A stretch of 64,000 nt of DNA, taken from sequence record KT454806; one strand, written 5' to 3'. Numbering within the stretch: position 1 is the stretch's first letter; each line of letters opens with the position of its first letter. Below, piece by piece: positions 10,033 through 57,944 of the stretch. This stretch comes from Escherichia phage SUSP2. The notes beneath the pieces are model-generated. The model was given only the letters and a program-made list of their open reading frames with translations. It did not search any database and had not been told where the DNA came from. Made by a program: the position numbers and the translations under genes.

Positions 10033-10093
10033 TTTTACTCCCTCTCAAAATCATTGACTCAATACATTACTGCAAAAAGTTTCAAAAAGCAAG

Positions 10094-17425: not shown

Positions 17426-17639
17426 GATTATGTTTAACAAACTGAAGAATGACCACGTAGCTAAAATTGACAGCCACATTGCAGCACTGAAAGATGCAAT
17501 CATCAAAGCTAAAGAAGCTACGGAGTCCGAAATGGAGGCTCTTGAGTCCCAGATTCAGCACCTGATTAACAAGCGTGTTGAACTGAAAGGCCGACTGGAT
17601 TATATTGAGTCTCAGCAGAAACTGTTTCAGGAGGTTTAA
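17412..17639 (+). CDS. hypothetical coiled-coil protein
   Basis: 75 aa. Confidence 0.4.
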   Translation: MRENKIMFNKLKNDHVAKIDSHIAALKDAIIKAKEATESEMEALESQIQHLINKRVELKGRLDYIESQQKLFQEV

Positions 17640-18394
17640 TGTTTAATTCCAGAGAATCCGTTTTAACTTGGAACCAGCGTTGTGGTAAAACCCCGTTGAC
17701 TCCGTATACACCTGAGTACTGGTCTTCGATGCGTAGTCAAGCACTTTGCATGTTAGAAGAAGCCAAAGAGCTTTTGAAAGCTGTTGATGAAAAAGACCCT
17801 ATCGAGGCTCTTGATGCTCAGGCAGACTTACAGTATGTTCTTGATGGACTGATTTACCTTTCACAGCATGACCATGACGGAGCTATGAAAGCAGTCTGTG
17901 AGAATAACAACCTGAAGTATACCGATAACTACGAAGAAGCTTTGAAGCGTCTTGCAGATATCGAGAAACGTACTGGTGATGAATGTCGTGTACGTGCTTC
18001 AATGATTGACGGCAAAGAGTGGTACGCCATTATCCGTGAGTCTGATAAGAAGGTTATGAAGCAATCTAATCTTCCTAAAGTACAGCTTGCAGAGTTCATC
18101 GCGGAACTTGAAAGCAGAGAATTGTTCGTGGTAACATCTGACACATGCGTTATCTGTAAAGGTCTTGTAGGAAGTTTGAAAGACCTTGGATTGAGTGACT
18201 TCACAGAAGTTCGACCAATCAGTTCGAAAGCAGACAAAGACTTCTGCCGAGAAAACGGATTATGGCTTGCAGATATTGTTTACTATGACGGTGAGAAGTT
18301 CCATGTGACCTCATACCCGAAACTGAACTATGATGCAAATAACCTTAAGAATTGGTTAAAAGGGGTTGGTTATAATGGATTCACAGAACATTAA
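17639..18394 (+). CDS. hypothetical protein (helical N-domain; CxxC-containing C-domain)
   Basis: 251 aa; TCVICKG motif in C-terminal half. Confidence 0.5.
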   Translation: MFNSRESVLTWNQRCGKTPLTPYTPEYWSSMRSQALCMLEEAKELLKAVDEKDPIEALDAQADLQYVLDGLIYLSQHDHDGAMKAVCENNNLKYTDNYEEALKRLADIEKRTGDECRVRASMIDGKEWYAIIRESDKKVMKQSNLPKVQLAEFIAELESRELFVVTSDTCVICKGLVGSLKDLGLSDFTEVRPISSKADKDFCRENGLWLADIVYYDGEKFHVTSYPKLNYDANNLKNWLKGVGYNGFTEH

Positions 18395-22938: not shown

Positions 22939-23137
22939 GCGTTTGTGGGAAGGTTTCACAGTTGATGCACCGATGATTGTCTTAGGTTTCTTCTTTGTGA
23001 ACCTGTTTATTGATATCAAACAAGGCGCTTTGTTTGGTGCTATGCTAGTATGGGTAATCTTTGAGATTCTAGAAATCCATCTTGACATTAGCGGCAAACT
23101 CAAAAAGTTTGTTGAGAAGATTTTCAAAAAGAATTAA
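22931..23137 (+). CDS. small membrane protein
   Basis: 68 aa with two hydrophobic segments. Confidence 0.4.
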   Translation: MLKRLWEGFTVDAPMIVLGFFFVNLFIDIKQGALFGAMLVWVIFEILEIHLDISGKLKKFVEKIFKKN

Positions 23138-23143
23138 TATAAG

Positions 23144-23164
23144 GGTCTCTTCGGAGACCTTTTT
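23144..23164 (+). terminator. rho-independent terminator
   Basis: GGTCTC-ttcg-GAGACC plus TTTTT. Confidence 0.7.
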
Positions 23165-23183
23165 CGTATATAAAGGAGCACAA

Positions 23184-25325
23184 ATGGTCAAAGTACAAAT
23201 TATTAAAAAGAATGGCTCACTTGAAGAACCAGACATTAAGAAAGTCCTAGCAGCAGTTACAAAGTCAGCTAACCGAGTTGGCTATAAAGAACTCCCGTTA
23301 GAAGTTGTTCATGCTCTTGAGTCAGCTTTTATGCGGATTCTTGTAAAGGCTTCTAACCAGAATGCTTTGCTGATTTCTGTAGATGACATTCACAGCATTG
23401 TTGAAGGGGCTTTAGCAGAAGTTAATCACGAGATTTATGAATCTTATTCAACCTATCGTAACTATCGTAAAGAGGTTGCACAGAATTGGGATGAACTCTA
23501 TCAGAAGACTAAAGATACCCTCTTCTTAGGTGACCGTGAGAATGCTAACTTTGACAGCAGCTTAATCTCTACAAAGGGTTCTATTATCCGTGGGTATCTG
23601 ACTAAAGAAATCTTCAAGCAGTATCACTTGACACCAGAAGAACTCGAAGCTATTGAAGCAGGTTTCATCTACATTCATGACCTGAGAGATTTGGTATTTG
23701 GTGGTATTAACTGTTGTCTGTTTGATATTGGTAAAGTCCTGAAAGGTGGCTTTGAAATGTCAGGGATTGAATATTGTGAACCTAAATCTGTTCTGTCAGC
23801 TTTACAGGTTATTGGTGATGTTGTATTGTCAGCAACTGCACAGCAGTTTGGTGGATTCACAATCCCAGAGATTGACAAGATTCTTGTACCATATGCTAAG
23901 AAGTCTCTACGTTACCATGCTGAGAAAGCAACCTCTTACGGGATTCCTAAAGAGCATTACTACAACTATGTAATGGAGCAGCTACAGATTGAGCTAACTC
24001 AAGGCTTTCAGTCACTGGAGATGAAGCTGAACACTGTACCTTGCAGCCGTGGTGACTTTGCATTCACAACTTTAACATTTGGTTTACTTGGTTCAGATAT
24101 GTCTGATGAAGATAACCGTCTTCAGTATATGATTGCAAACACTATTCTTGATGTTCGTATGAATGGTCAAGGAAAGAACAAGAAGCCTGTTGTATTCCCT
24201 AAATTGGTTTACATTCATGACCACACAAGACACAGTGAAGATATCTGTCAAGGGCAACTGTACAATAAAGCTATCGAGTGTTGCTCTAAAGCAATGTACC
24301 CAGACTTCTTGAGTGTATCCGGTCATGGTGCTGTTGCAGAATCTTTTGAACGTTCTGGTAAGGTTATTTCACCGATGGGTTGTCGAGCTTTCCTGTCACC
24401 ATACTATGACGAAAATGGAGAAGAGTTCTGCGTTGGTCGTGCAAATATTGGTGCAGTGTCTTTGAACTTGCCAATGATTTACCAGTATGCTAAAGAGAAT
24501 GGTTTAGACTTCTGGAAAGAGCTTGACAAATACCTTGAAATGATTCGTAGCTTCCATAAGAAACGCTATGAGATGATTGCTAATATGCCAGCAAGTTCAA
24601 ACCCTCTGGCATTTACACAAGGTGGCCTGTACAAAGGGGATAAGAAGCCAACTGATAAGATTGGGTGGGATACTGTGAAATCCTTCACAGCTTCTTTCGG
24701 TGTAACCGCACTTGATGAACTCTCTGTACTGGCTGGAGAAGGTAGACTGCATGAATCTCAGAAAGTGATTGCACAGCAAGTTCTGGACTACCTGAATGAC
24801 CGTCTGGCGAACTTTAAAGAGCAAGATGGCTTCTTGTATGCCCTTTATGGTACACCTGCTGAGAGCCTTTGTGGGACGCAATTGAAGCAGTTCCGTAATA
24901 TGTTTGGTGTTGTGAAAGATGTTTCTGATAAAGAATACTTCACTAACAGTTTCCATATGAACGTTGCAGCAGATATTACTCCGTATCAGAAGCAAGACTT
25001 GGAAGAACCTCTGTTCCATAGCTGTAACGGTGGTCACATCCAGTACATTCGTCTTGCTAATCCAGAGAATCATAAAGCTATCAAGGCTTGTGTCTCAAGA
25101 GGTATGGGTAAGGGATTCTATCAAGGTGTGAACTTTGACTTAGCAATCTGTGAGAATTGTGGTCATCGTCCTAATGCAGACGTTGAAGAGTGTCCTAAGT
25201 GTCATTCACATGATATCTCAGTCATTAACCGTGTTTGTGGTTACCTTGGATGGACTAAAATCAAGGGAACTTCAAGAATGAATGATGCAAAGATTGCTGA
25301 AATTCGTGACAGAAAATCTATGTAA
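23184..25325 (+). CDS. nrdD: anaerobic (class III) ribonucleotide reductase
   Basis: Start after AAGGAG; ATP-cone-like N-terminus; C-terminal zinc ribbon CENCGH..CPKCHSHD and glycyl-radical motif RVCGYLGW. Confidence 0.9.
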   Translation: MVKVQIIKKNGSLEEPDIKKVLAAVTKSANRVGYKELPLEVVHALESAFMRILVKASNQNALLISVDDIHSIVEGALAEVNHEIYESYSTYRNYRKEVAQNWDELYQKTKDTLFLGDRENANFDSSLISTKGSIIRGYLTKEIFKQYHLTPEELEAIEAGFIYIHDLRDLVFGGINCCLFDIGKVLKGGFEMSGIEYCEPKSVLSALQVIGDVVLSATAQQFGGFTIPEIDKILVPYAKKSLRYHAEKATSYGIPKEHYYNYVMEQLQIELTQGFQSLEMKLNTVPCSRGDFAFTTLTFGLLGSDMSDEDNRLQYMIANTILDVRMNGQGKNKKPVVFPKLVYIHDHTRHSEDICQGQLYNKAIECCSKAMYPDFLSVSGHGAVAESFERSGKVISPMGCRAFLSPYYDENGEEFCVGRANIGAVSLNLPMIYQYAKENGLDFWKELDKYLEMIRSFHKKRYEMIANMPASSNPLAFTQGGLYKGDKKPTDKIGWDTVKSFTASFGVTALDELSVLAGEGRLHESQKVIAQQVLDYLNDRLANFKEQDGFLYALYGTPAESLCGTQLKQFRNMFGVVKDVSDKEYFTNSFHMNVAADITPYQKQDLEEPLFHSCNGGHIQYIRLANPENHKAIKACVSRGMGKGFYQGVNFDLAICENCGHRPNADVEECPKCHSHDISVINRVCGYLGWTKIKGTSRMNDAKIAEIRDRKSM

Positions 25326-27227: not shown

Positions 27228-27240
27228 TAAGTTATGATTA

Positions 27241-27265
27241 GGGAACTGTAAAAGGTTCCCTTTTT
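27241..27265 (+). terminator. rho-independent terminator
   Basis: GGGAAC-tgtaaaa-GGTTCCC plus TTTTT. Confidence 0.6.
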
Positions 27266-27279
27266 ATTTTGGAGAGAAA

Positions 27280-27795
27280 ATGTACTTATCTAACTTGAAA
27301 CGTGCTGCTGCAATGTCTGTTCTAAGACTTGACTTTGATGAACGTCAAGAGTTTATTGATTCCCATCAGTATGACCCTTCCAATTCTAATCACATGGTTC
27401 TCTGGAATCGTGGGAAGTTCCGTGACAGTTCCCTCTTTGCATACTACCCTCACTATACAATTGACAACCTCTATGAGTACTGTGTTGTCAAGAACACTAT
27501 TGCAACTCTTAACAAGCTTTGTCGTTATTCTGGCAAGCAAGCCTTTACATTAGGCCACCACAAGCCCGTTACAAAAGGTGGTGAGCATCACTGTGCAAAC
27601 TGGTTTATCCAGACTAAGATTGATAACCAGAAGCAAGGTGAGAGGGTTTTAGATACTCCAAAGATGACTTATGAAGAACAAAAAGAGTATCTAAGAAATA
27701 ATATGCCACCAATGCTTGACAGGGAATATGTAGTTCTGGCAATATCTCTCCTGTTGAAATTCGAGACTGTTTATAAGGCGACTTATCATGGCTAG
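27280..27795 (+). CDS. hypothetical protein
   Basis: 171 aa; GHHKPVTKGGEHHCANW segment could be a degenerate HNH-like site. Confidence 0.5.
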   Translation: MYLSNLKRAAAMSVLRLDFDERQEFIDSHQYDPSNSNHMVLWNRGKFRDSSLFAYYPHYTIDNLYEYCVVKNTIATLNKLCRYSGKQAFTLGHHKPVTKGGEHHCANWFIQTKIDNQKQGERVLDTPKMTYEEQKEYLRNNMPPMLDREYVVLAISLLLKFETVYKATYHG

Positions 27796-28066
27796 AGCAG
27801 ATTGGGAAATAAAAGACCTTGTAAGTGAGGCTGGCAATGGTTGTGAGATGTATATGATTCGTGGTCATGTACCAGACTCATTAGCACTTGAGATGATTGA
27901 CCATCACACAAATGGATTCTACAAAGAACTTGGTGAACCAAATGTTGAACGCACTTGGACAAAACCAGTACCGGATGGCACAGGCAACTGTTCGGTTATC
28001 TATCACATTGTGAATCCACAAAAATGTAAAACAGCTATGGCTGTAACCTTCGTAACTTTTGATTGA
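27788..28066 (+). CDS. hypothetical protein
   Basis: 92 aa. Confidence 0.4.
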   Translation: MARADWEIKDLVSEAGNGCEMYMIRGHVPDSLALEMIDHHTNGFYKELGEPNVERTWTKPVPDGTGNCSVIYHIVNPQKCKTAMAVTFVTFD

Positions 28067-28078
28067 GAGAGATTAAAG

Positions 28079-28960
28079 ATGAAAACTATTATTACCGTAC
28101 TGTTGCACTCACAGAAGAAAGGTGCTCACCAAGAAGAGTTCAACATTATCCAGTTCCCGTCTGGAGAAATCGGTGGAAACTTCTCCGAAGAACTAGTGAC
28201 CTATGCTGAAAAGAATGCTTCCCAGATTGAGAACGTCATCTTCACTGTACAGGGTTACAACAAAGATACTCTGTTTGCTTTAGCTCTGGCAAAAGAAGCT
28301 ATTGATAAACTAATTCCTCAGAAAGCAACGATGAAGACTGTCATTTTTGCTTATCTGCCAAATGCTCGTTATGACCGTCACATGTTTAAAGGTGATGCAG
28401 CAGCACTGAAGGTGTTTGCAAATCTTGTCAATGCAATGGATTTTGATGCAGTATGTGCTCTGGATGCTCATAGTGATGTTGCAGATAACTTGTTCAAATG
28501 CTTTCAGAACATCCCTCAAAAAGAGGTTGCAGCACACTATGCAAGTGAGCCAACTATTGATTTCTTGGTAGCACCAGACGCAGGAGCAGCTAAGAAGATT
28601 GCAGAGACGGCTAAAGAGGTTGATAAACCTTACGTAACAATGGCTAAGGTTCGAGACCTGAAGACTGGTGAGATTACAGGTATGCGTCTGCTTGACGATG
28701 TAGACCTGACTGGTAAAACTGTTCTCATTATTGATGATATCTGTGATGGTGGTCGTACATTCATTGAAGCAGCCAAGTATCTTCGTGAAGCTGGAGCAGC
28801 TAAAGTTGAACTGTATGTAACACACGGTATTTTCTCAAAAGGTGTTGAAAACCTGCTTGACAATGGGATTTCACACATCTACACTACAGACTCTTTAGGC
28901 AGTTCGAAAGACCGTGGTCTTACTCATTTCGGTCAAGTAACTGTAGCAAACATTTACTAA
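28079..28960 (+). CDS. prs: ribose-phosphate pyrophosphokinase (PRPP synthetase)
   Basis: 293 aa; TVLIIDDICDGGRTFIEAAKYLREAGA is the type I PRTase PRPP-binding loop, close to E. coli Prs. Confidence 0.8.
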   Translation: MKTIITVLLHSQKKGAHQEEFNIIQFPSGEIGGNFSEELVTYAEKNASQIENVIFTVQGYNKDTLFALALAKEAIDKLIPQKATMKTVIFAYLPNARYDRHMFKGDAAALKVFANLVNAMDFDAVCALDAHSDVADNLFKCFQNIPQKEVAAHYASEPTIDFLVAPDAGAAKKIAETAKEVDKPYVTMAKVRDLKTGEITGMRLLDDVDLTGKTVLIIDDICDGGRTFIEAAKYLREAGAAKVELYVTHGIFSKGVENLLDNGISHIYTTDSLGSSKDRGLTHFGQVTVANIY

Positions 28961-28969
28961 AATTAATCA

Positions 28970-28985
28970 GGGGCTGAAAAGCCCC
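28970..28985 (+). terminator. hairpin (weak terminator)
   Basis: GGGGCT-gaaaa-GCCCC with poor T-run. Confidence 0.4.
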
Positions 28986-29006
28986 ACTTTGAGAGAGATT
29001 AAAAAC

Positions 29007-30833
29007 ATGTCTAAATCAATCTATGCAGTTCCAGCAGGTCTTAATGCAGATGCTTACAAAGCTGGTCACATCTACCAGTATCCAAGTGCAACTCAGTATC
29101 TGATGCTGAACCTTACACCTCGTGGTGATAAGTGGTTCAACACTCCTTTGGAGACTGATGGTGTAGTTGCTTTTGGTATCCAACGTTTTGTGAAAGATTA
29201 TCTGGTAGACCACTGGAATGCAACGTTCTTTGAACGTGATAAGAAAGAAGCCGTTGATGAAATCTTAGAAATCATGAATGGTGTACTTGGTGCAGATGCC
29301 ATTGGTCGCCAACATTGGGAAGAACTTCACGACTTAGGTTATCTGCCAGTGGCAGTATACTCTGTTGAAGAAGGTACAATTGTCCCTATGCGTGTTCCAA
29401 TGATTATCTTCAAAAATACCGTTGAAGGTTTCCATTGGGTAGCTGGTTATCTGGAAGATGCTTTCTCTGCTGAAATCTGGAAAGCTTGTACCATTGCAAC
29501 TATTGCATTACATTACAAACGTATCTGTAAAGGTTGGGCTGACAAGACTTGTGACAATGACTTCCATCTGCCTTGGCAGTGTCACGACTTTGCAATGCGT
29601 GGTATGTCTGGTTTCACAGACGATGCCTTCAATGCTGTAGGCCATCTTACCAGCTTCAAAGGTACTGATAGCTTCCCTGCTGTGTATACTGCTAAACGTG
29701 CATATGGACAGTTCATGACTGTAAGTGATATTGGTAACTCTGTTCCAGCAACTGAACACTCTGTGATGTGTGCAAACATTGCATGGAATATGAAAGACCT
29801 GTCAGAAGATGATATTCACTCACAGTATATTATGCAGTCTGATAGCTTACTGGATGCTAAACGTTGGCGTGGTGAGGTTAAAACCTTTGAACATCTTTTG
29901 GTAGATGTTTATCCAACTGGTATTGCAAGTGTTGTTTCTGATACTTACAACTTCTGGCGCACAGTTACAGAGGTTCTCCCAGAACTTCGTGAAGTAATCC
30001 TGAAACGAGATGGAAAACTGGTAATCCGTCCAGACTCTGGTGACCCTGTACACATTGTTACTGGCTATCGTGCAATTGAGTGGGAAAATGCTAAAAGTAT
30101 GTATTACAAACATATGTCAACCATTTCCCCTAACAACACTTATCTGCTTGATGCAATCTTGAATTGTAGCATGTCAGATATGGGTTATGGTTTCTCTGCT
30201 TGGTTAATCTCTGAAGGTTATGAGTTAGTTGTTGATGCAGAAGACTTTAACGTTGCTGATACAGTTAATCTGAAAGAAACTTACAAGACTGGTAAAGTTG
30301 TTGTTAAACGTATGCTGACAGCAGAAATTGATGGTGCTATCAAGACTCTATACAATATCTTTGGTGGAACTGTAAACGCTAAAGGCTACAAAGTTCTTGA
30401 TGAGCACATTGGCTTAATCTACGGTGATTCTATCACTCTGGAACGTGCTGAAGAGATTCTTAGTCGTCTTGCTGAAAAGGGCTTTGCAAGTTCTAACGTT
30501 GTTTTTGGTGTTGGTTCATACACTTACCAGTACCTGACTCGTGATACCTTTGCATTCGCTGTCAAAGCAACTCTTGCACAGATAGATGGGGAAGAAATCA
30601 TGCTGGCAAAAGACCCTAAAACTGATAGTGGTCTGAAGAAGTCTGCTTTTGGCGGTGTAGTCCCTATGTGGGATGGTGATAAGCTGGAAGCTGTAGATGG
30701 TTTTGGTTTTGCAGAATTTGAAAGCGTACTAGATAACCCTCAGTGTGCTCTGAAGTTGGTATTCTGTGACTCTCAGCCATATGGCTACGTTAATCTTCGT
30801 GATGTACGAAATGTTATTGACAGACAGCTTTAA
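29007..30833 (+). CDS. nadV: nicotinamide phosphoribosyltransferase (NAMPT)
   Basis: C-terminal GDSITLERAEEIL..VVFGVGSYTYQYLTRDTFAFAVKAT..AKDPKTDSGLKKSAFGG resembles the human NAMPT GDGVD..AFGSGGGLLQKLTRD..FKDPVAD block. Confidence 0.85.
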   Translation: MSKSIYAVPAGLNADAYKAGHIYQYPSATQYLMLNLTPRGDKWFNTPLETDGVVAFGIQRFVKDYLVDHWNATFFERDKKEAVDEILEIMNGVLGADAIGRQHWEELHDLGYLPVAVYSVEEGTIVPMRVPMIIFKNTVEGFHWVAGYLEDAFSAEIWKACTIATIALHYKRICKGWADKTCDNDFHLPWQCHDFAMRGMSGFTDDAFNAVGHLTSFKGTDSFPAVYTAKRAYGQFMTVSDIGNSVPATEHSVMCANIAWNMKDLSEDDIHSQYIMQSDSLLDAKRWRGEVKTFEHLLVDVYPTGIASVVSDTYNFWRTVTEVLPELREVILKRDGKLVIRPDSGDPVHIVTGYRAIEWENAKSMYYKHMSTISPNNTYLLDAILNCSMSDMGYGFSAWLISEGYELVVDAEDFNVADTVNLKETYKTGKVVVKRMLTAEIDGAIKTLYNIFGGTVNAKGYKVLDEHIGLIYGDSITLERAEEILSRLAEKGFASSNVVFGVGSYTYQYLTRDTFAFAVKATLAQIDGEEIMLAKDPKTDSGLKKSAFGGVVPMWDGDKLEAVDGFGFAEFESVLDNPQCALKLVFCDSQPYGYVNLRDVRNVIDRQL

Positions 30834-30848
30834 ATAAGTATTATAAGA

Positions 30849-30869
30849 GGCTCCTACGGGAGCCTTTTT
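30849..30869 (+). terminator. rho-independent terminator
   Basis: GGCTCC-tacg-GGAGCC plus TTTTT. Confidence 0.7.
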
Positions 30870-31444: not shown

Positions 31445-33811
31445 ATGCGCATGGTAAATGACCACGCAGAGGTGATTAAGAGTTCATCTTCATTAGAAAC
31501 TTCTCAGGCGTCTATCACGATGACTCCTGAAATGTTCAGCCTGTTAAGTTCAGGTGTTTACACTTTTAAAGAACGTGCGGTAATCCGTGAGTTGTCATGT
31601 AATGCTGTAGACACCCACAAAGAAGCTGGAAAAGAGAATGTGCCGTTCCGTGTACATTTGCCAACTCGTTTTGACCCATACTTTGAAGTCCGTGACTTTG
31701 GTACTGGTCTGACTCACGAGAAGGTCATGTCTTTGTACCTGAACTATGGAGCTTCTACTAAGAATGACTCGAATGACTACATCGGTGCTATGGGTATCGG
31801 TTCAAAGTCACCTTTTGCAATCGCACAGTCATTCACCGTGTCCAGTTACGTAGATGGTGTGGTTAACAAGTACTCTGTATATCTTGAGAATGGTATTCCT
31901 CAAGTTACTAAACTGACGACCAACCCGACTACCGAACCAAATGGTTTAGCAGTTCGTGTTGCAGTAGCTGACCACCGTATTCAGAAGTTCCATGAAGAAG
32001 CGAGCAATGTATTCTCTTACTTCAAATTGAAACCAGAATGCAACGTAGAATACCGTGATATTCTTAGCGAGATGACTACCATTGTCCGTGAAGATGGTGT
32101 TTACGATGCGATGAAGTATAAAGAGAACTGGCGTTCAAGCAATAACCAGACAAATTTCAACGTTGTCATGGGTAACATTGCTTATCCTGTTGACTTAGGA
32201 GACTTGCTTGGTGCAGAGTTCACCAATGTTCTTCCTACATTCTTCCGTAACGCTGTAGACCTTGTTAACATCTACATGCCGATTGGTTCAGTAGCTATCG
32301 CTGCATCTCGTGAAGCATTGCAGATGAATGAGACCACCAAGAAAGCAATTACAGATGCAGTTAAAAAGATTACTGCAACAATTGTAGAAGATGTGGTAAA
32401 ACGTATTGCTGACGAACCAACTCTGGTAGATGCAGCACAGGCTTATGCAGACTTGCGAGCTAACTCTCGTGAAATCTTCCAGCATGTGTTTACCCGTCTT
32501 GAGTGGAATGGTCAGAACTTAAGTAACCTTGAGCAGAAACTTTTAAAGATTCGTCAAGGACAATTAAGTAATCAAGATGGTACTCCAAAGTTTGCGACTG
32601 ATGATTCAGGAGCTTTGGTTGTTGATAAGAGTGGTAATCATATTCCAGTGATTGGCAATCTTTATGAACCTGTTGCATACTTTAAGTACAGCCAGCTTGA
32701 GAACAAAATTCGTGCTACTTCAGCGTTGTACACTCAGGAGGGTGCAAACTTCAGTATCTTCGGTGCAATGAGTAAGAACAAAATGTCTAACTATTTGTTC
32801 CTTATCAATGACCGTCGAAACAAAAATGGTACTGAAAAGACTGTAGGACGTAATCAGATTATTCGTGGTGCTTGCCGTGACCGTGAAAATGAAGAACCAA
32901 ACTTCCGTCGCTATAATGGTATTGTATACGTCTTCTCTGATGAGAAAGAGTTAGATGATTTTATCAGTCTTCACATGCTTGATAAGAGTCTGTTGACGAT
33001 TGTTAAAATGTCTGACAAAGAGCATCACTATGTGAAGCGTACCGTGACTCGTGGTGTTGTAAAACTCTACAAAGCTTCTGTACATGAGCATGGAGTGTCC
33101 TATGGAGAAGTGAAAGAAAACTTTGATGATATTGAAGAACCTCAGTATTATATCAAGGCTCAAAGTGATGAGGTTCTTGGTGGTATATTTAACTGTTCTC
33201 CAGAGGCGGCTGCTAAGGTATCTGCACGTTTAACTGGACAGTCAGTTTATGTGTTCCGTAAAGCAAACTGGAAGAAAATTCCTGAAGACTGGTTAGAAGT
33301 AAATCAGCAAGTCTTCAAAGATTCTATCACTGACATTCACTGGATTGAGTTTAACCGTTTTGTAACTCGTGAATGGTGTAGTTCAAACTGTGATATCACT
33401 GATAAAGGTGTTATTGCCAGAACGTTCCAGTTTGGTGATAAGAAGTGCTCAAGAGGTTATGTCTACAGTGCTGACTACAGCAAACGTATCTTCTTGGAAG
33501 GGAACGAAGAGGCTGTAGAAGCAATGTTTGGTAAGCTGGCTTATGTCGCTTCACCAATTGCTTATAAGGACGTTACAAGTGTTCTGCATGACTTACAACG
33601 CTTGACAAGAGCCAAGAGTAAGGTACACTCTGCAATCTACAATGCAAGAGAACGTATTAAGCAGAAACTGAGTGTGTACTTCACAGCACGTAAAGCAGAA
33701 AACTTCTTGCTTTCTAACTTAGACTGGAATAAAGTAAGTCCTGTTGAAGTTGGTCAGTTCTTAGGATTTGATGTTAAGTGCATCCCTGAAGGAACTCAGG
33801 CTTTTGATTAA
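31445..33811 (+). CDS. rIIA: rIIA-like protein with N-terminal GHKL (Bergerat-fold) ATPase domain
   Basis: 788 aa; N-box ELSCNAVD, G1 box RDFGTGL, G2 box GAMGIGSKS; size and domain order as T4 rIIA. Confidence 0.6.
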   Translation: MRMVNDHAEVIKSSSSLETSQASITMTPEMFSLLSSGVYTFKERAVIRELSCNAVDTHKEAGKENVPFRVHLPTRFDPYFEVRDFGTGLTHEKVMSLYLNYGASTKNDSNDYIGAMGIGSKSPFAIAQSFTVSSYVDGVVNKYSVYLENGIPQVTKLTTNPTTEPNGLAVRVAVADHRIQKFHEEASNVFSYFKLKPECNVEYRDILSEMTTIVREDGVYDAMKYKENWRSSNNQTNFNVVMGNIAYPVDLGDLLGAEFTNVLPTFFRNAVDLVNIYMPIGSVAIAASREALQMNETTKKAITDAVKKITATIVEDVVKRIADEPTLVDAAQAYADLRANSREIFQHVFTRLEWNGQNLSNLEQKLLKIRQGQLSNQDGTPKFATDDSGALVVDKSGNHIPVIGNLYEPVAYFKYSQLENKIRATSALYTQEGANFSIFGAMSKNKMSNYLFLINDRRNKNGTEKTVGRNQIIRGACRDRENEEPNFRRYNGIVYVFSDEKELDDFISLHMLDKSLLTIVKMSDKEHHYVKRTVTRGVVKLYKASVHEHGVSYGEVKENFDDIEEPQYYIKAQSDEVLGGIFNCSPEAAAKVSARLTGQSVYVFRKANWKKIPEDWLEVNQQVFKDSITDIHWIEFNRFVTREWCSSNCDITDKGVIARTFQFGDKKCSRGYVYSADYSKRIFLEGNEEAVEAMFGKLAYVASPIAYKDVTSVLHDLQRLTRAKSKVHSAIYNARERIKQKLSVYFTARKAENFLLSNLDWNKVSPVEVGQFLGFDVKCIPEGTQAFD

Positions 33812-33840: not shown

Positions 33841-33890
33841 TTAGAATACGAACCACTAAGTAATATTAACTAACAAGAGAGAGTAATAAG

Positions 33891-35000
33891 ATGACTACTA
33901 AAACTAAAGCACAAATCGACGCAGAAATCTATGCACTGGTTCAGGAAGGTAAACTGACCAAAACTGCCATTGCAATGAAGTATAACACTTCTACTCGTTC
34001 CGTTGGTCGTGCTGTAGAACGTCACGAAGCAACACTGAAAGGTGCTAAGAAAGCAACTTCCAAGCCAGCTAAACAGACTCTGAAACAGATTGCAAAGTCT
34101 GCTAAGAAGACGTCTACTAAGCCAGTTGCCAAGGCTGTTAAAGAGGCAGTGAAGAAAGAACCTGTTAACCAACTGCACGAAGCAATGCAGAATGGTAACC
34201 AGATTGAGTACATGATTACTGGTGATTCTGTTATCATGACTTTCGGTGCAGATTCTGAAATCGTTGAGTCTACCCATCCGAACTATAAAGAAATCGTGAT
34301 GGCTGTTGTAGGTGGTGAGTACAAGAAAGCTTTCGAACTGATGAACATTCGTAAGTCTATTGAGAACTTCACTCAGGGTGCAATCACCATCAAAGGCGAT
34401 AACCTGTACTACGGTGCTGTTCAAATGCGTTCCACTCTGGTAGACCGTATTCTGGATATGATGAAAGCTGGCGACGATGGCTTTAAACGTCTGGTAGCAT
34501 TCTTCGAAAAACTGATGGAAAACCCATCCAAAGATTCTGTAGAACAACTTTGGGGATTTGTATCCCACCTTGACGTTGAGATTGATGAAGAAGGTTATAT
34601 CATCGGTTGGAAGAAAGTTACAACTCGTGGTGGTAAGCTGTTTGACTCCCGTACCTGCAAAGTTCCTAATGATTTGGGTAACGTTGTAGAGATGCCACGC
34701 TGGATGGTTGATAATGACCGTACAGTAACTTGCTCTCAAGGTCTGCATGTTGGTGCTTGGGATTATGTCCGTAGCTTCTCTGGTGACACTATCCTGAAAG
34801 TTCGTGTACATCCACGAGACGTTGTATCTGTACCAACTGACTACCAAGATATGAAAATGCGAGCTTCCCGTTATGAAGTTGCAGCAATTGTGAATGGTCA
34901 GCGTCAGGTTGTCAAAGAGTGGGATGGCAAATCTGAAGCACTGCATGTTGTTGTAGGCACTGCTGGTGAACTGATTTCTCAGCGTAAACGTGAAATCTAA
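33891..35000 (+). CDS. rIIB: rIIB-like protein
   Basis: 369 aa immediately after rIIA-like gene; assignment by position and size, N-terminal pattern weakly resembles rIIB. Confidence 0.45.
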   Translation: MTTKTKAQIDAEIYALVQEGKLTKTAIAMKYNTSTRSVGRAVERHEATLKGAKKATSKPAKQTLKQIAKSAKKTSTKPVAKAVKEAVKKEPVNQLHEAMQNGNQIEYMITGDSVIMTFGADSEIVESTHPNYKEIVMAVVGGEYKKAFELMNIRKSIENFTQGAITIKGDNLYYGAVQMRSTLVDRILDMMKAGDDGFKRLVAFFEKLMENPSKDSVEQLWGFVSHLDVEIDEEGYIIGWKKVTTRGGKLFDSRTCKVPNDLGNVVEMPRWMVDNDRTVTCSQGLHVGAWDYVRSFSGDTILKVRVHPRDVVSVPTDYQDMKMRASRYEVAAIVNGQRQVVKEWDGKSEALHVVVGTAGELISQRKREI

Positions 35001-35016
35001 TAAGTAAATTCTTAAA

Positions 35017-35039
35017 GGGCTGCTTCGGCAGCCTTTTTT
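35017..35039 (+). terminator. rho-independent terminator
   Basis: GGGCTGC-ttcg-GCAGCC plus TTTTTT. Confidence 0.7.
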
Positions 35040-35100
35040 ATTTGTGTTTTGTGCAGAGTAGTGTATAATTGCTTGCATGTTGAACTAAACAGGAGAACCA

Positions 35101-38477: not shown

Positions 38478-39260
38478 ATGGGTATTGTAAAAGTCATCAA
38501 AGGGGATATCTTCACAGACTTTGAAAAAGGTAAGTTTGATATCATCGGTCACGGTTGCAACTGTATGAATCTGATGGGTGCAGGTATCGCTGACAAGATT
38601 TCTAAGGGTTATCCAAAAGCCTATGAAACTGATGCTGAAGTCTACCGTGTAGCAGGAGGAAGAGAGCATAAACCTTGTCAGAAACTGCTTGGTAAACTCT
38701 CTGTAGCACGTCTTAAACAAGGTCGTATTGCTAACCTGTACACTCAGTTGAAGACTGGTAAAGATGCTCGCTACGATGCTCTTGAGAGTGCTCTGTTGAG
38801 CCTTAACCAGTACTGCAAAGTAAATCAATTGAAGAAAGTTGGTCTTCCAATGATTGGTGCAGGGATTGGTGGACTTGACCCGAAAGCTATTGTGGTGATT
38901 ATGAATCACATCTTGAAAGATGTTGATGTTTATCTTTACGTGTTTGAAGAGGCAATGTTTAATACTCTGTCAACATGGGGTAATCACAGTGAACCACAAT
39001 ACTTTGCAGGTGTAGCCGTTGTCAACGAAGACGGAGTTACCCTCTTCAGGCATCGTAAGAACAAGGTACATCGGAGTAACCCTCCGGTTGAGCGAATGTC
39101 TCTAAGTAACGCTCAAGTTACCCCGCCGTTGAAAGGAAGTATGCAACGTGCAGTGACATTTGGAAGTGAGCCTGATGTGTACATTCTTGCAGCAAATGAG
39201 AAAGATGCTGAAGCAATTGTAGACATTTCTAATATCAAGTTCTTAGCTGCAAAGAACTAA
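38478..39260 (+). CDS. macro domain protein (ADP-ribose binding/processing) with C-terminal extension
   Basis: VKVIKGDIFTDFEKGKFDIIGHGCNCMNLMGAGIADKI and GLPMIGAGIGGLDP match macro-domain glycine-rich loops. Confidence 0.7.
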   Translation: MGIVKVIKGDIFTDFEKGKFDIIGHGCNCMNLMGAGIADKISKGYPKAYETDAEVYRVAGGREHKPCQKLLGKLSVARLKQGRIANLYTQLKTGKDARYDALESALLSLNQYCKVNQLKKVGLPMIGAGIGGLDPKAIVVIMNHILKDVDVYLYVFEEAMFNTLSTWGNHSEPQYFAGVAVVNEDGVTLFRHRKNKVHRSNPPVERMSLSNAQVTPPLKGSMQRAVTFGSEPDVYILAANEKDAEAIVDISNIKFLAAKN

Positions 39261-56528: not shown

Positions 56529-57944
56529 ATGAGCGATTTATTTAAACATTCGCACCTTCATGCAGGGCGAACTGAAAATGGTGCTGTTAACCATACATCA
56601 TCAATGTCTGCCTTGGTAGACTTCTACAAAGCTGCTGGTTCAAGCCGTGGTAATGTAGAGATTCTCCCAGAGTTGTTCTACAAAGCTTTGCGTGAGGATG
56701 TTGATGTAGCAGTTCGTATTTTACTGCATATGCGAGATGTACGAGAAGGTATGGGTGAGCGTAAAGCTTTCCGAACTGTTCTCTTACAAGCAATCGAAGA
56801 TAACATTCTAGATTCTTTCCAAGTTCTTCGTATCATGGATAAGATTTCTGAATTAGGTCGTTTCGATGACTTCAAAATCTTCGTAGGGACTCGTTATGAG
56901 ACAGATGCTTTCAAGCATTTAGAAGCAGCTTTGTTAGACCCTGATACAGCAGGTTTAGCAGCTAAGTGGTTACCACGAGTAAAACCACGACACAAACAGT
57001 TTGTAAAACGTTTCTGTAAGTTTGCAAACCTGAGTGAGAAAGAATACCGTACACTGTTATCAGCTTTGTCTGATACCGTTGAACAGAAAATCTCTACAAA
57101 TAACTTTGGTGAGATTGACTACAGCAAGATTCCTTCACTGGCTGCTGCACGTTATCAAAAACTGTTCAGCAAAAAAGATGGTGAACGTTATGCAGCTTAC
57201 GTTGAAGCTTTATCCAAGGGTGAAGCAAAGATTAATGCTGGTGCTGTGTACCCATACGATATTCTGAAGTCCGTTAATCACGGTAAAGCAAACGTTGCAA
57301 ACGAACAGTGGAAAGTATTACCAAACTGGATGGCAGAAGGTGAAAACATTCTGTGCATGACAGACGTATCAGCTTCTATGACGTGGCAAACTTTTGGTGC
57401 TGTTACCGCTCTTGATATTGGTCTGTCTTTGGCGTTATACGTCTCAGAACGCAATACAGGGTGCTTTAAAGATGAGTTGATGGTTTACTCCACAAGACCT
57501 CACTTTATTACTCTGAGTGGTGATTTGCAGACTCGTATGCGTCAGGTAATGAACAAGGTTGAGTATGGTTCAACAAACCTGCAAGCAGCATTTGACCGCA
57601 TTCTTGAAATCGGTGTAAGAAATGGCTTGACTCAGGCAGCAATGCCAAGTAAGCTTATTATCTTCTCTGATATGGAGTTCAATCAGGTTGACGGTGCAGA
57701 TGGTTGTACAAACTTCGAAGCAATTCGTAGTAAGTACGAAAAAGCTGGATACGAAATGCCACAACTGGTATTCTGGTACTTAGCAAACCGTAATGGTACT
57801 TGCGAAGTGTCTGTTAAGGATAACGGTGTAGCAATGGTATCGGGGTTCTCTCCAGCCACTTTAAAAGCTCTGCTTGGTGGTGAGAAGTTTGACCCAATCA
57901 GCGTAATGCTCAAAGCAGTAATGATTGACCGTTACATCTGGTAA
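56529..57944 (+). CDS. vWA-domain protein, possibly Ro60-like (TROVE plus vWA architecture)
   Basis: 471 aa; MIDAS-like DVSAS in CMTDVSASMTW at about residue 277; TROVE assignment of the N-terminal 260 aa is tentative. Confidence 0.5.
   Translation: MSDLFKHSHLHAGRTENGAVNHTSSMSALVDFYKAAGSSRGNVEILPELFYKALREDVDVAVRILLHMRDVREGMGERKAFRTVLLQAIEDNILDSFQVLRIMDKISELGRFDDFKIFVGTRYETDAFKHLEAALLDPDTAGLAAKWLPRVKPRHKQFVKRFCKFANLSEKEYRTLLSALSDTVEQKISTNNFGEIDYSKIPSLAAARYQKLFSKKDGERYAAYVEALSKGEAKINAGAVYPYDILKSVNHGKANVANEQWKVLPNWMAEGENILCMTDVSASMTWQTFGAVTALDIGLSLALYVSERNTGCFKDELMVYSTRPHFITLSGDLQTRMRQVMNKVEYGSTNLQAAFDRILEIGVRNGLTQAAMPSKLIIFSDMEFNQVDGADGCTNFEAIRSKYEKAGYEMPQLVFWYLANRNGTCEVSVKDNGVAMVSGFSPATLKALLGGEKFDPISVMLKAVMIDRYIW

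Follow-up and report, generated by a model that had tools for sequence, protein, structure and literature searches.

Neighbouring Prs-like and NAMPT-like genes of a Suspvirus coliphage very probably form a NARP1 operon

What do two neighbouring phage genes produce when one resembles a PRPP synthetase (Prs) gene and the other a NAMPT gene? A preliminary description of the DNA studied here proposed that they jointly turn nicotinamide into NMN and counter NAD+-depleting defences, with the last step to NAD+ unaccounted for. The window, meaning the whole stretch of DNA analysed, covers 64 kb out of a genome of ~87 kb. It is assigned to a Suspvirus (Ounavirinae, Felix O1-like) coliphage, and its nucleotide identity to the Suspvirus phages mistaenkt and EcSzw-2 is ~94%. 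The gene pair, named adps and namat here (Table 1), is with high confidence the operon published as NAD+ reconstitution pathway 1 (NARP1), an already known system.

The open reading frames of the pair are listed as 293 aa at 28079-28960 and 614 aa at 28989-30833, both on the plus strand. The start of namat is placed at the ATG at 29007, which gives 608 aa; close relatives begin there with MSKSIYAVPAGL. Both motifs quoted in the preliminary description, VLIIDDICDGGRT and GDS...FGVGSYTYQYLTRD, are found in the translations. Both genes lie where they had been reported, and their membership of the Prs and NAMPT superfamilies is backed by profile scores far beyond chance. Adps reaches 135.1 bits against TIGR01251 (ribP_PPkin; cutoff 113), with E values of 1.4e-14 for PF00156 and 7e-99 for phrog_619. 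Namat scores 462.6 bits against NF006629 (cutoff 405), with E values of 3.9e-32 for PF04095 and 5e-196 for phrog_448.

Table 1. Features of the adps-namat locus and the distal Macro-domain gene, in window coordinates
Feature	Position	Strand	Description
Terminator-like hairpin closing the preceding unit	27240..27261	+	Found by a search for terminator-like sites
gp77 orthologue	27280-27795	+	171 aa; 80% identity to Bas63 gp77
gp78 orthologue	27788-28066	+	92 aa; orthologue of Bas63 gp78
adps	28079..28960	+	Prs-like ADP-ribose diphosphokinase (Adps), 293 aa; homology-based
Intercistronic spacer	28961..29006	+	46 nt; read from sequence
Spacer hairpin	28970-28985	+	G+C-rich, GGGGCTGAAAAGCCCC; read from sequence
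Translation-initiation motif	28989-29003	+	TTGAGAGAGATTAAA; read from sequence
namat	29007..30833	+	NAMPT-like nicotinamide ADP-ribose transferase (Namat), 608 aa, long Ounavirinae form; homology-based
Intrinsic-terminator-like hairpin and T-run	30845..30868	+	10-bp stem with 5 GC pairs, then TTTTTAATTT
Candidate accessory gene	38478-39260	+	Poa1p/Adpp-like Macro protein ('putative phosphatase'), 260 aa

NARP1 would feed on the products of the defence itself. A host defence (SIR2-HerA, type I Thoeris, DSR1/2 or SEFIR) would split NAD+ into ADP-ribose (ADPR) and nicotinamide. Adps would then transfer the beta,gamma-pyrophosphate of ATP to the terminal ribose of ADPR (ADPR + ATP -> ADPR-PP + AMP). 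On Namat, nicotinamide would displace the pyrophosphate in one step (ADPR-PP + nicotinamide -> NAD+ + PPi). Neither PRPP nor NMN would be required, and because NAD+ itself would be the product of Namat, an NMN adenylyltransferase (NMNAT) would not be required either. Both reactions are known from enzymes of SPbetaL1, ICP1 and P. foliorum, together with in vivo metabolomics of phage Bas63. We infer that the enzymes of this phage act like these characterised orthologues and homologues; their presumed substrate specificity rests on the Bas63 metabolomics and on homology.

The identification starts from Bas63, whose gp79-gp80 are the operon of the NARP1 discovery (Osterman et al., bioRxiv 10.1101/2024.02.11.579819). 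Adps and gp79, both of 293 aa, are 77% identical over 292 aa with zero gaps, and Namat is 75% identical to gp80 over its full length. Bas63 lacking genes 79 and 80 no longer overcomes SIR2-HerA and no longer restores NAD+, and ADPR-PP was detected solely when the operon was present. In an independent study, single deletions of g79 or g80 cut plating on Sir2-HerA cells 10^4-10^6-fold. Purification of the Bas63 protein failed. In published tables, Bas63 and the closest relatives of the window (mistaenkt, EcSzw-2 and Felix O1) are entered with an Adps next to a Namat, and the same arrangement is observed in the window, where the two genes are adjacent, 46 nt apart and both on the plus strand. By this orthology, the pair is likely to be functional and to counter NAD+-depleting defences, as the preliminary description had suggested. 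The same orthology argues for NARP1 rather than for the route through PRPP and NMN that it had proposed.

That route would need a true PRPP synthetase and a true NAMPT making NMN, with host NadR, PncC or NadD completing NAD+. The Pfam, NCBIfam and PHROG annotations agree with it, and Namat is able to form NMN from PRPP in vitro. It is nevertheless very improbable for this phage and already refuted for the Bas63 orthologue, as the Bas63 operon is active without host pncC and nadR. SPbetaL1 Adps was inactive when assayed as a canonical Prs, yet made ADPR-PP from ADPR and ATP. Adps of the window falls far under the Prs equivalog cutoffs, failing all equivalog and narrower models (for instance, 112.6 vs 296 bits for NF002095 and 104.6 vs 297 bits for NF002320). 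TIGR01251, a broad subfamily model, is the sole Prs-type curated cutoff that it passes. Finally, the window enzyme has a Namat-specific adenine clamp that is absent in true NAMPTs, described below.

The residues of Adps also point to NARP1. The protein is 33% identical to ICP1 Adps (structure solved), 30% to SPbetaL1 Adps (biochemically tested) and 24.5% to E. coli Prs. A sequence search of the PDB returned canonical Prs chains only (best 4twb, E 7e-19). Because Adps structures went unmatched in this search, residues were checked with the ICP1 gene from GenBank and the residue numbers of the published ICP1 paper. Adps K190 is the aligned counterpart of the catalytic beta-hairpin lysines SPbetaL1 K162 and ICP1 K185, whose Ala mutants are inactive. 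The PP loop and donor site of Adps are remodelled relative to canonical Prs: the DDICDG loop is found at residues 219-224, and residues 219-228 read DDICDGGRTF, compared with DDICDGAASF in ICP1 and DDMIDTGGTL in E. coli Prs; three positions of the PP loop are unlike ICP1 (GRT vs AAS). The ICP1 substrate-site residues are matched by R97, H131, D167, D219, D220, I221, C222, D223, G224 and F228. R97 corresponds to R87, which holds the adenine in ICP1. F18 and F92, two aromatic adenine contacts of ICP1, become A16 and M102 in an N-terminal alignment that is unreliable at 33% identity. These two residues and the PP-loop differences count against the NARP1 assignment.

Canonical PRPS carries a C-terminal alpha11-alpha12 module for regulation and filament formation, which is lost in Adps. 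By alignment, this module is missing from the window protein (293 aa vs 315 aa in E. coli Prs), and the TIGR01251 match stops at position 290 of 309. The C-terminal segment of canonical Prs is absent in all aligned phage Adps sequences.

For Namat, the best match among solved structures is 9w5w/9w5x ('Crystal structure of Namat'), both by sequence (E 5e-124) and by fold (E 7e-53, target TM 0.94); the Foldseek identity to SPbetaL1 Namat is 35-37%. Every residue that contacts NAD+ in the SPbetaL1 crystal structure is identical or conservatively replaced in the window enzyme (D15, Y17, F195, R198, D221, A248, H251, R341, D343, G473, D474, G503, S504, T511, R512 and D513). The helix of the Namat selectivity clamp follows the pattern GS-X-Phi-X-Phi-X-Phi-TRD, in which motif positions 3 and 7 are aromatic. 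Residues 503-513 of the window enzyme read GSYTYQYLTRD, and Y505 and Y509 occupy these two adenine-stacking positions. The same columns read GSFTYQYNTRD in SPbetaL1, GAQTYQRNTRD in H. ducreyi NadV (HdNadV) and GGALLQKVDRD in Xcc, so that the clamp positions are Q/R (HdNadV) or A/K (Xcc) in true NAMPTs and aromatic, not NAMPT-type, in Namat.

The clamp loop of Namat enzymes carries a stacking residue: either its third position is Arg, or Lys/Tyr stands there and the fourth residue stacks; the Bas63 arrangement is described in PMC12774641. In the window the loop reads PRGDKW, with K42 followed by W43, and in Bas63 it reads PRSDKW. Namat also contains two insertions, at residues ~259-289 and 356-441, the second being ~86 aa and folded. 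A Pfam scan of the two insertions alone gave zero matches even at E <= 1. The preliminary description had named assignment of 29007-30833 to a different phosphoribosyltransferase family as a result that would refute it, and this is half the case. The product stays in the NAMPT superfamily, but within it belongs to the Namat subfamily, with a different predicted donor substrate.

No NMNAT is recognisable in the 64-kb window, as had been reported. In tblastn, NadD and NadR of E. coli as queries gave best E values of 0.79-1.3 (positive control Prs, E 1.5e-13), and a Pfam scan of 40 ORFs of the window gave no CTP_transf_like (PF01467), NUDIX (PF00293) or RyR match. This leaves no gap in the predicted pathway: the last step to NAD+, earlier called unaccounted for, would be the Namat reaction itself.

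Alternatively, the pair could belong to a pathway of the NARP2 type, exemplified by Vibrio phage KVP40 (NAMPT + NMNAT), and have its NMNAT encoded outside the window. Room for such a gene exists in the ~23 kb of genome beyond the window, and 773 phage records hold NadR-like NMNATs. However, NadD/NadR tblastn against the whole genome of Bas63, a relative, found no NMNAT (best E 0.47), and in relatives the region beyond the window is a structural module. Furthermore, NARP2 NAMPTs have no Prs-like partner, the authors of the pathways found no phage with both NARP1 and NARP2, and the clamp motif of the window enzyme is of the Namat type. A NARP2 pathway is therefore extremely unlikely.

The anatomy of the locus is that of an operon. 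The spacer hairpin at 28970-28985 lacks a T-run after it on the plus strand and thus is not terminator-like there. The 15-mer just before namat recurs at 28063-28077, ahead of adps. It was considered as a signal specific to the pair and rejected, as close variants stand ahead of other genes. The terminator-like hairpin beyond namat begins 12 nt past the stop codon and is probably where the transcription unit ends.

Between 27240 and 30868 there are four same-strand genes (27280-27795, 27788-28066, adps and namat), and no further plus-strand terminator-like sites were seen there. The two small upstream genes, of families phrog_3500 and phrog_4726, are possibly co-transcribed with adps-namat. 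NARP1 chemistry has no part for their products. The Bas63 gp77 protein is reported to counter retron Ec67 ~10-fold (bioRxiv 10.1101/2024.10.10.617714). No RyDEP (RyR-domain, PF02026), Macro or Nudix gene is found among the flanking small ORFs of the terminator-bounded unit.

Further upstream lie nrdA, nrdB, nrdD, nrdG and a dNMP kinase gene. This position would suit a housekeeping function, in which the pair boosts PRPP and NAD+ for DNA synthesis and has no counter-defence role. Yet NARP1-bearing Bas63 left NAD+ unraised in defence-free cells, and its deletion mutants show a defect specific to Sir2-HerA, with weaker impairment on retron Ec86 and hhe. A purely housekeeping function is hardly credible on these grounds, and the NARP1 assignment is retained.

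A Macro-domain gene lies 7.6 kb, or ~13 genes, downstream of namat. Its product matches PF01661 at 31.4 bits (cutoff 22) and a profile built from 10 published Adpp sequences with a probability of 99.7% and an E value of 1.3e-25 (hhalign). Its identity is 29% with the assayed Adpp of Vibrio phage Gary (E 1e-16) and 69% with Bas63 gp95. H25, in GHGCNC, aligns with the catalytic H24 of Gary Adpp. The protein may convert ADPR-1''-phosphate to ADPR. Matches to its fold include TARG1, DarG and Poa1p, the last among the top ones. In a phmmer alignment to OARD1/TARG1, Gln and Gly occupy the positions of TARG1 K84 and D125, which we take to be catalytic; a TARG1/DarG-like glycohydrolase role is therefore ranked below that of a phosphatase. 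The protein also has a C-terminal extension of ~100 aa, beta-rich in the model. A Pfam scan of this extension alone gave zero matches even at E <= 1, and in fold searches of the model (PDB, BFVD) the annotated targets aligned on the macro domain alone.

It is possible, though doubtful, that NARP1-AP exists in Felix O1-like phages (Suspvirus, Felixounavirus) as a dispersed set of three genes. The Macro protein would dephosphorylate ADPR-1''-phosphate, the product of RES NAD+ phosphorylases of the aRES type, and NARP1 would then rebuild NAD+. By the published methods, NARP1-AP is detected when a Macro gene lies inside the NARP1 operon or at most two genes from it, a range that leaves out the gene at 38478-39260. 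The published survey scanned two genes either side of each operon, and Escherichia/Salmonella phages are absent from its list; a dispersed version would have been missed because of this range.

Other observations bear on the link between the two loci. In distant relatives, the Macro gene was not found adjacent to NARP1 and a spacing of ~9 kb is kept, so synteny does not independently back a functional link. Across phages, Poa1p-like Macro genes were not seen to track NARP1, with ~2,860 records compared with ~1,570 for Adps, and their carriers include T4-like phages without NARP1. If the Macro protein does feed NARP1, then a large group of phages of E. coli and Salmonella, used in therapy, is predicted to resist aRES as well, and NARP1-AP would be commoner than reported (15% of NARP1 phages).

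Pfam, NCBIfam and PHROGs name NARP1 genes "PRPP synthetase" and "NAMPT", which is a persistent annotation trap. It invites an NMN-salvage pathway and a hunt for a nonexistent NMNAT. As Namat passes the cutoff of NF006629, a nicotinate/nicotinamide phosphoribosyltransferase equivalog, automatic annotation will go on naming it NAMPT or NAPRT. True Prs/NAMPT pairs can be told from NARP1 by a short rule set. In NARP1 the Prs-like protein has the DDICDG loop and the catalytic Lys, the third and seventh residues of the clamp-helix motif are aromatic in the NAMPT-like protein, and the genome is without NMNAT.

Several known systems can be compared with this locus. Vibrio phage Gary has a NARP1-AP operon (Adps - Adpp Macro phosphatase - Namat; bioRxiv 10.64898/2026.01.28.702374). 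The window likewise encodes a Macro protein that resembles Poa1p/Adpp and keeps the catalytic His. However, the Macro gene of the window stands apart from the operon rather than inside it, its product has the extra C-terminal domain, and related Macro proteins occur in many phages without NARP1.

The NARP2 of KVP40 (NadV NAMPT + NatV NMNAT/Nudix) also restores NAD+ against depleting defences and also has a first enzyme of the NAMPT superfamily. It works through PRPP, NMN and an NMNAT, whereas the window has a Prs-like partner, no NMNAT and a Namat-type clamp. An NMNAT accompanies 94% of phage NAMPTs of the true NAMPT/NARP2 clade.

Among the characterised NARP1 enzymes are SPbetaL1 Namat (9w5w/9w5x) and the Adps of SPbetaL1 and ICP1 (PMC12774641, PMC13586617). 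The window enzymes share with them the catalytic core, the Adps catalytic Lys, the acceptor motif DD(I/L) and the SCH motif of Namat. They differ in that the two insertions of the window Namat are absent from the characterised enzymes, its clamp loop has Lys-Trp where SPbetaL1 has Arg, and the window Adps appears to be non-aromatic at the equivalents of ICP1 F18 and F92.

The NARP1 of Bas63 (JohannRWettstein, MZ501086) differs in its intercistronic spacer and in belonging to a Felixounavirus rather than a Suspvirus; in the window, Namat has 15 aa more in insertion 1 (608 vs 593 aa). Genes 79-80 nevertheless have the same order, strand and neighbourhood, the gene order NrdD-NrdG-...-gp79-gp80-...-rIIA-rIIB being common to both. 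Both phages also have a long-form Namat with both insertions and a clamp made of the K-W loop and GSYTYQY[L/M]TRD.

Two adjacent genes in the window, adps and namat, are orthologous to the two-gene operon 79-80 of Bas63 (JohannRWettstein, MZ501086, genus Felixounavirus), the phage in which the NAD+ pathway NARP1 was discovered (bioRxiv 10.1101/2024.02.11.579819). Bas63 gp79 shares 77% identity with the window Adps over 292 aa without gaps, and gp80 shares 75% with the window Namat over its full length. The gene order is also common to both phages: NrdA-NrdB-NrdD-NrdG, small ORFs, the pair, and then rIIA-rIIB. Over a 5-kb stretch around the pair, nucleotide identity to Escherichia phages EcSzw-2 and mistaenkt (Ounavirinae, genus Suspvirus) is ~94%, and more than 270 Felix O1-like records also match. 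Supplementary tables in the NARP1 discovery paper name mistaenkt, EcSzw-2, EcSzw_1, Felix O1, and Bas63 as having Adps adjoining Namat, and label their Namat "Adps-associated" (bioRxiv 10.1101/2024.02.11.579819).

An ORF listing confirmed both genes on the plus strand where the preliminary description had placed them (28079-28960 and 29007-30833), and the motifs it quoted, VLIIDDICDGGRT and GDS...FGVGSYTYQYLTRD, are found in the translations. The namat start at 29007 agrees with close relatives, whose proteins begin MSKSIYAVPAGL. Profile searches place Adps in the ribose-phosphate diphosphokinase superfamily (TIGR01251, 135 bits, cutoff 113; phrog_619, E 7e-99), below every curated Prs equivalog cutoff, and Namat in the NAMPT/NAPRT superfamily (NF006629, 462.6 bits, cutoff 405; phrog_448, E 5e-196).

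The pair had been read as a true Prs and NAMPT making NMN, which was also the first expectation of the NARP1 authors, who dropped it. ADPR-pyrophosphate (ADPR-PP, m/z 720.01) was seen only in infected defence-carrying cells whose phage had genes 79-80. Purified Adps of SPbetaL1, a gp79 homologue, converts ADPR and ATP to ADPR-PP and gave no product in a canonical Prs assay; Namat, the gp80 homologue, joins ADPR-PP and nicotinamide to form NAD+, favouring ADPR-PP over PRPP (bioRxiv 10.1101/2024.02.11.579819). Because NARP1 orthologues go via ADPR-PP straight to NAD+, the NMN chemistry is not upheld. The proposed counter-defence purpose stands, by orthology to Bas63 NARP1. In an independent Bas63 knockout screen, single deletion of g79 or g80 cut plating on Sir2-HerA 10^4-10^6-fold, with weaker effects on retron Ec86 and hhe.

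The earlier statement that no NMNAT is recognised in the window agrees with tblastn and Pfam scans. With E. coli NadD and NadR as queries, neither the window (best E 0.79-1.3) nor the whole Bas63 genome (best E 0.47) gave a match; a Prs query, as positive control, found adps at E 1.5e-13. None of 40 window ORFs (all uncharacterised ones of at least ~140 aa plus flanking small ORFs) matched CTP_transf_like, NUDIX, or RyR. NadR-like genes are present in 773 other phage records, and the NARP1 authors found no phage carrying both NARP1 and NARP2, the NAMPT-NMNAT pathway. The last step to NAD+, previously thought unaccounted for, requires no missing enzyme, because Namat makes NAD+ itself.

ICP1 Adps structures show that R87, H121, D161, D212, and D213 form an acceptor groove, that the PP loop (C215-S220) is remodelled, that Lys185 is catalytic, and that the C-terminal alpha11-alpha12 module has been lost. 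In alignments, the window K190 is in register with ICP1 K185 and SPbetaL1 K162; R97, H131, D167, D219, D220, I221, C222, D223, G224, and F228 are kept, and a C-terminal segment of ~20 aa is absent. Where E. coli Prs has DDMIDTGGTL in this loop, the window protein has DDICDGGRTF. Three PP-loop positions differ from ICP1 Adps, and the ICP1 adenine-contacting aromatics F18 and F92 fall opposite A16 and M102.

Positions of the features discussed in the text
Feature	Position	Strand	Remarks
adps ORF	28079-28960	+	293 aa
namat ORF	28989-30833	+	608 aa from ATG at 29007
Namat insertion 1	29781-29873		residues ~259-289; lineage-specific, Ounavirinae
Namat insertion 2	30072-30329		residues ~356-441; lineage-specific, Ounavirinae
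Terminator-like hairpins	27240-27261 and 30845-30868	+	bracket gp77 orthologue, gp78 orthologue, adps, namat
15-nt purine-rich motif TTGAGAGAGATTAAA	28063-28077 and 28989-29003	+	identical; ahead of adps and namat start codons
Close variants of TTGAGAGAGATTAAA	26644-26658; 10034-10048; 63585-63599	+; -; -	ahead of a few other genes
G+C-rich hairpin GGGGCTGAAAAGCCCC	28970-28985		in 46-nt adps-namat spacer; no T-run after it on coding strand
171-aa ORF	27280-27795	+	80% identity to Bas63 gp77; inside NARP1's terminator-bounded unit
rIIA, rIIB	31445-33811 and 33891-35000	+	directly downstream of NARP1
nrdD (anaerobic ribonucleotide reductase)	23082-25325	+	single uninterrupted 747-aa ORF
Macro-domain ORF	38478-39260	+	260 aa; PF01661 31.4 bits (cutoff 22); "putative phosphatase" in relatives

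No further plus-strand terminator-like site lies between the two hairpins bracketing the pair, and we infer co-transcription of the four genes they enclose. The motif TTGAGAGAGATTAAA and its variants give 5 matches in the window, against 0.32 expected by chance; since variants precede other genes, it is probably a general, shared strong translation-initiation region. The spacer hairpin may act in RNA processing, RNA stability, or translational coupling.

Bas63 gp77 is reported from a knockout screen to counter retron Ec67, and is termed GIY-YIG there (bioRxiv 10.1101/2024.10.10.617714). This assignment looks uncertain: scans of the window orthologue gave nothing in Pfam and, among PHROGs, just a weak HNH-type hit (E 1.6e-4). 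As g84 and g85, the Bas63 counterparts of rIIA and rIIB, are reported to counter qatABCD defence, the region from 27.3 to 35 kb appears to hold a series of counter-defence genes. The 402-aa ORF that runs antisense to rIIB (33870-35078) is a shadow ORF of that gene. The Bas63 annotation splits nrdD (46630-49516) into two joined segments around a homing endonuclease gene; the window nrdD is uninterrupted, and therefore this intervening element is absent from the window phage. Upstream of the ribonucleotide reductase genes lies a MazG-like nucleotide pyrophosphohydrolase (17639-18394, +; PF01503, phrog_2144). Further away, DUF2828 and DUF7788 domains occur in a 471-aa protein (56529-57944, +) that equals Bas63 gp130 in length (1416 nt, 471 aa); gp130, just upstream of tRNA genes, is reported to be Ro60-like and to counter ppl defence.

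The Macro-domain gene is found ~13 genes downstream of NARP1. In NARP1-AP, an in-operon Poa1p-like Macro phosphatase, Adpp, keeps NARP1 working by converting ADPR-1''-phosphate, the product of aRES defence, to ADPR (bioRxiv 10.64898/2026.01.28.702374). When ten published Adpp sequences were combined into a profile, hhalign aligned the window protein to it with 99.7% probability (E 1.3e-25). This protein, 98% identical to the phage SUSP2 Macro protein, shares 29% identity with Gary Adpp, which has been assayed, and retains the catalytic His mutated in published work (H25 in GHGCNC). It also has a beta-rich C-terminal extension of ~100 aa, and the nearest folds to its predicted structure are TARG1, DarG, and Poa1p. 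Felix O1-like phages might thus carry a dispersed NARP1-AP with this protein as a distant accessory, a tentative and rather doubtful reading. The NARP1-AP survey covered two genes on each side of NARP1 operons, so these Macro genes were beyond its reach; Escherichia and Salmonella phages are absent from its table (bioRxiv 10.64898/2026.01.28.702374). The ~9 kb spacing is kept in distant relatives, and synteny therefore adds no support for a link to NARP1. Related Macro proteins are commoner than NARP1 (~2,860 against ~1,570 phage records) and occur in T4-like phages without it. Alternatively, the protein may clear ADP-ribose-1''-phosphate arising in RNA repair, for which a nearby polynucleotide kinase gene speaks, as does the reported slight similarity of Bas63 gp107 to the NAD-binding domain of RNA 2'-phosphotransferase. 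It could also have an unrelated ADP-ribose-processing role.

The top PDB sequence matches of the window Namat are 9w5w/9w5x (E 5e-124), titled "Crystal structure of Namat" in Foldseek; agreeing residue numbering (D13, Y15, R40, F189, and others) shows that they are the SPbetaL1 Namat described in PMC12774641. They also rank first for its AlphaFold model (pLDDT 91.7; E 7e-53, target TM 0.94), followed by H. ducreyi NadV, Xcc NAMPT, and mammalian NAMPT. All NAD+-contacting residues of SPbetaL1 Namat are identical or conservatively replaced: D13, Y15, F189, S190, R192, D215, A242, H245 (the catalytic His), R306, D308, and G360-D361-A362 correspond to D15, Y17, F195, A196, R198, D221, A248, H251, R341, D343, and G473-D474-S475. 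In the published Namat signature, GS-X-Phi-X-Phi-X-Phi-TRD, positions 3 and 7 are aromatic. The aligned columns read GSYTYQYLTRD in the window, GSFTYQYNTRD in SPbetaL1, GAQTYQRNTRD in H. ducreyi NadV (a true NAMPT), and GGALLQKVDRD in Xcc NAMPT. The window loop PRGDKW has the Lys-then-stacking-residue arrangement published for the Bas63 clamp loop (PMC12774641). Namat-type proteins of 496 aa with the clamp motif GSYTYQYNTRD occur on large chromosomal contigs of Klebsiella, Cronobacter, Phytobacter, Kosakonia, and other Enterobacterales, consistent with reported bacterial NARP1 homologues.

SPbetaL1 and ICP1 Namat are ~115 aa shorter than the window protein, whose extra residues an alignment of 31 homologues places in the two insertions. 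The long form (~590-610 aa) is found in Felix O1-like, SUSP1-like, Yersinia P778, Pectobacterium Arno162, and Salmonella SB18 phages, with identities as low as 43%; homologues in the following tier have 496 aa. The second insertion, modelled by AlphaFold as a confident compact alpha/beta subdomain (pLDDT ~91-95), matches no Pfam family, and the Namat structural paper does not discuss it. The pair itself is an already published system, NARP1, which had been detected correctly; only the lead on the Macro gene and the subdomain inserted in Namat go beyond the literature consulted.
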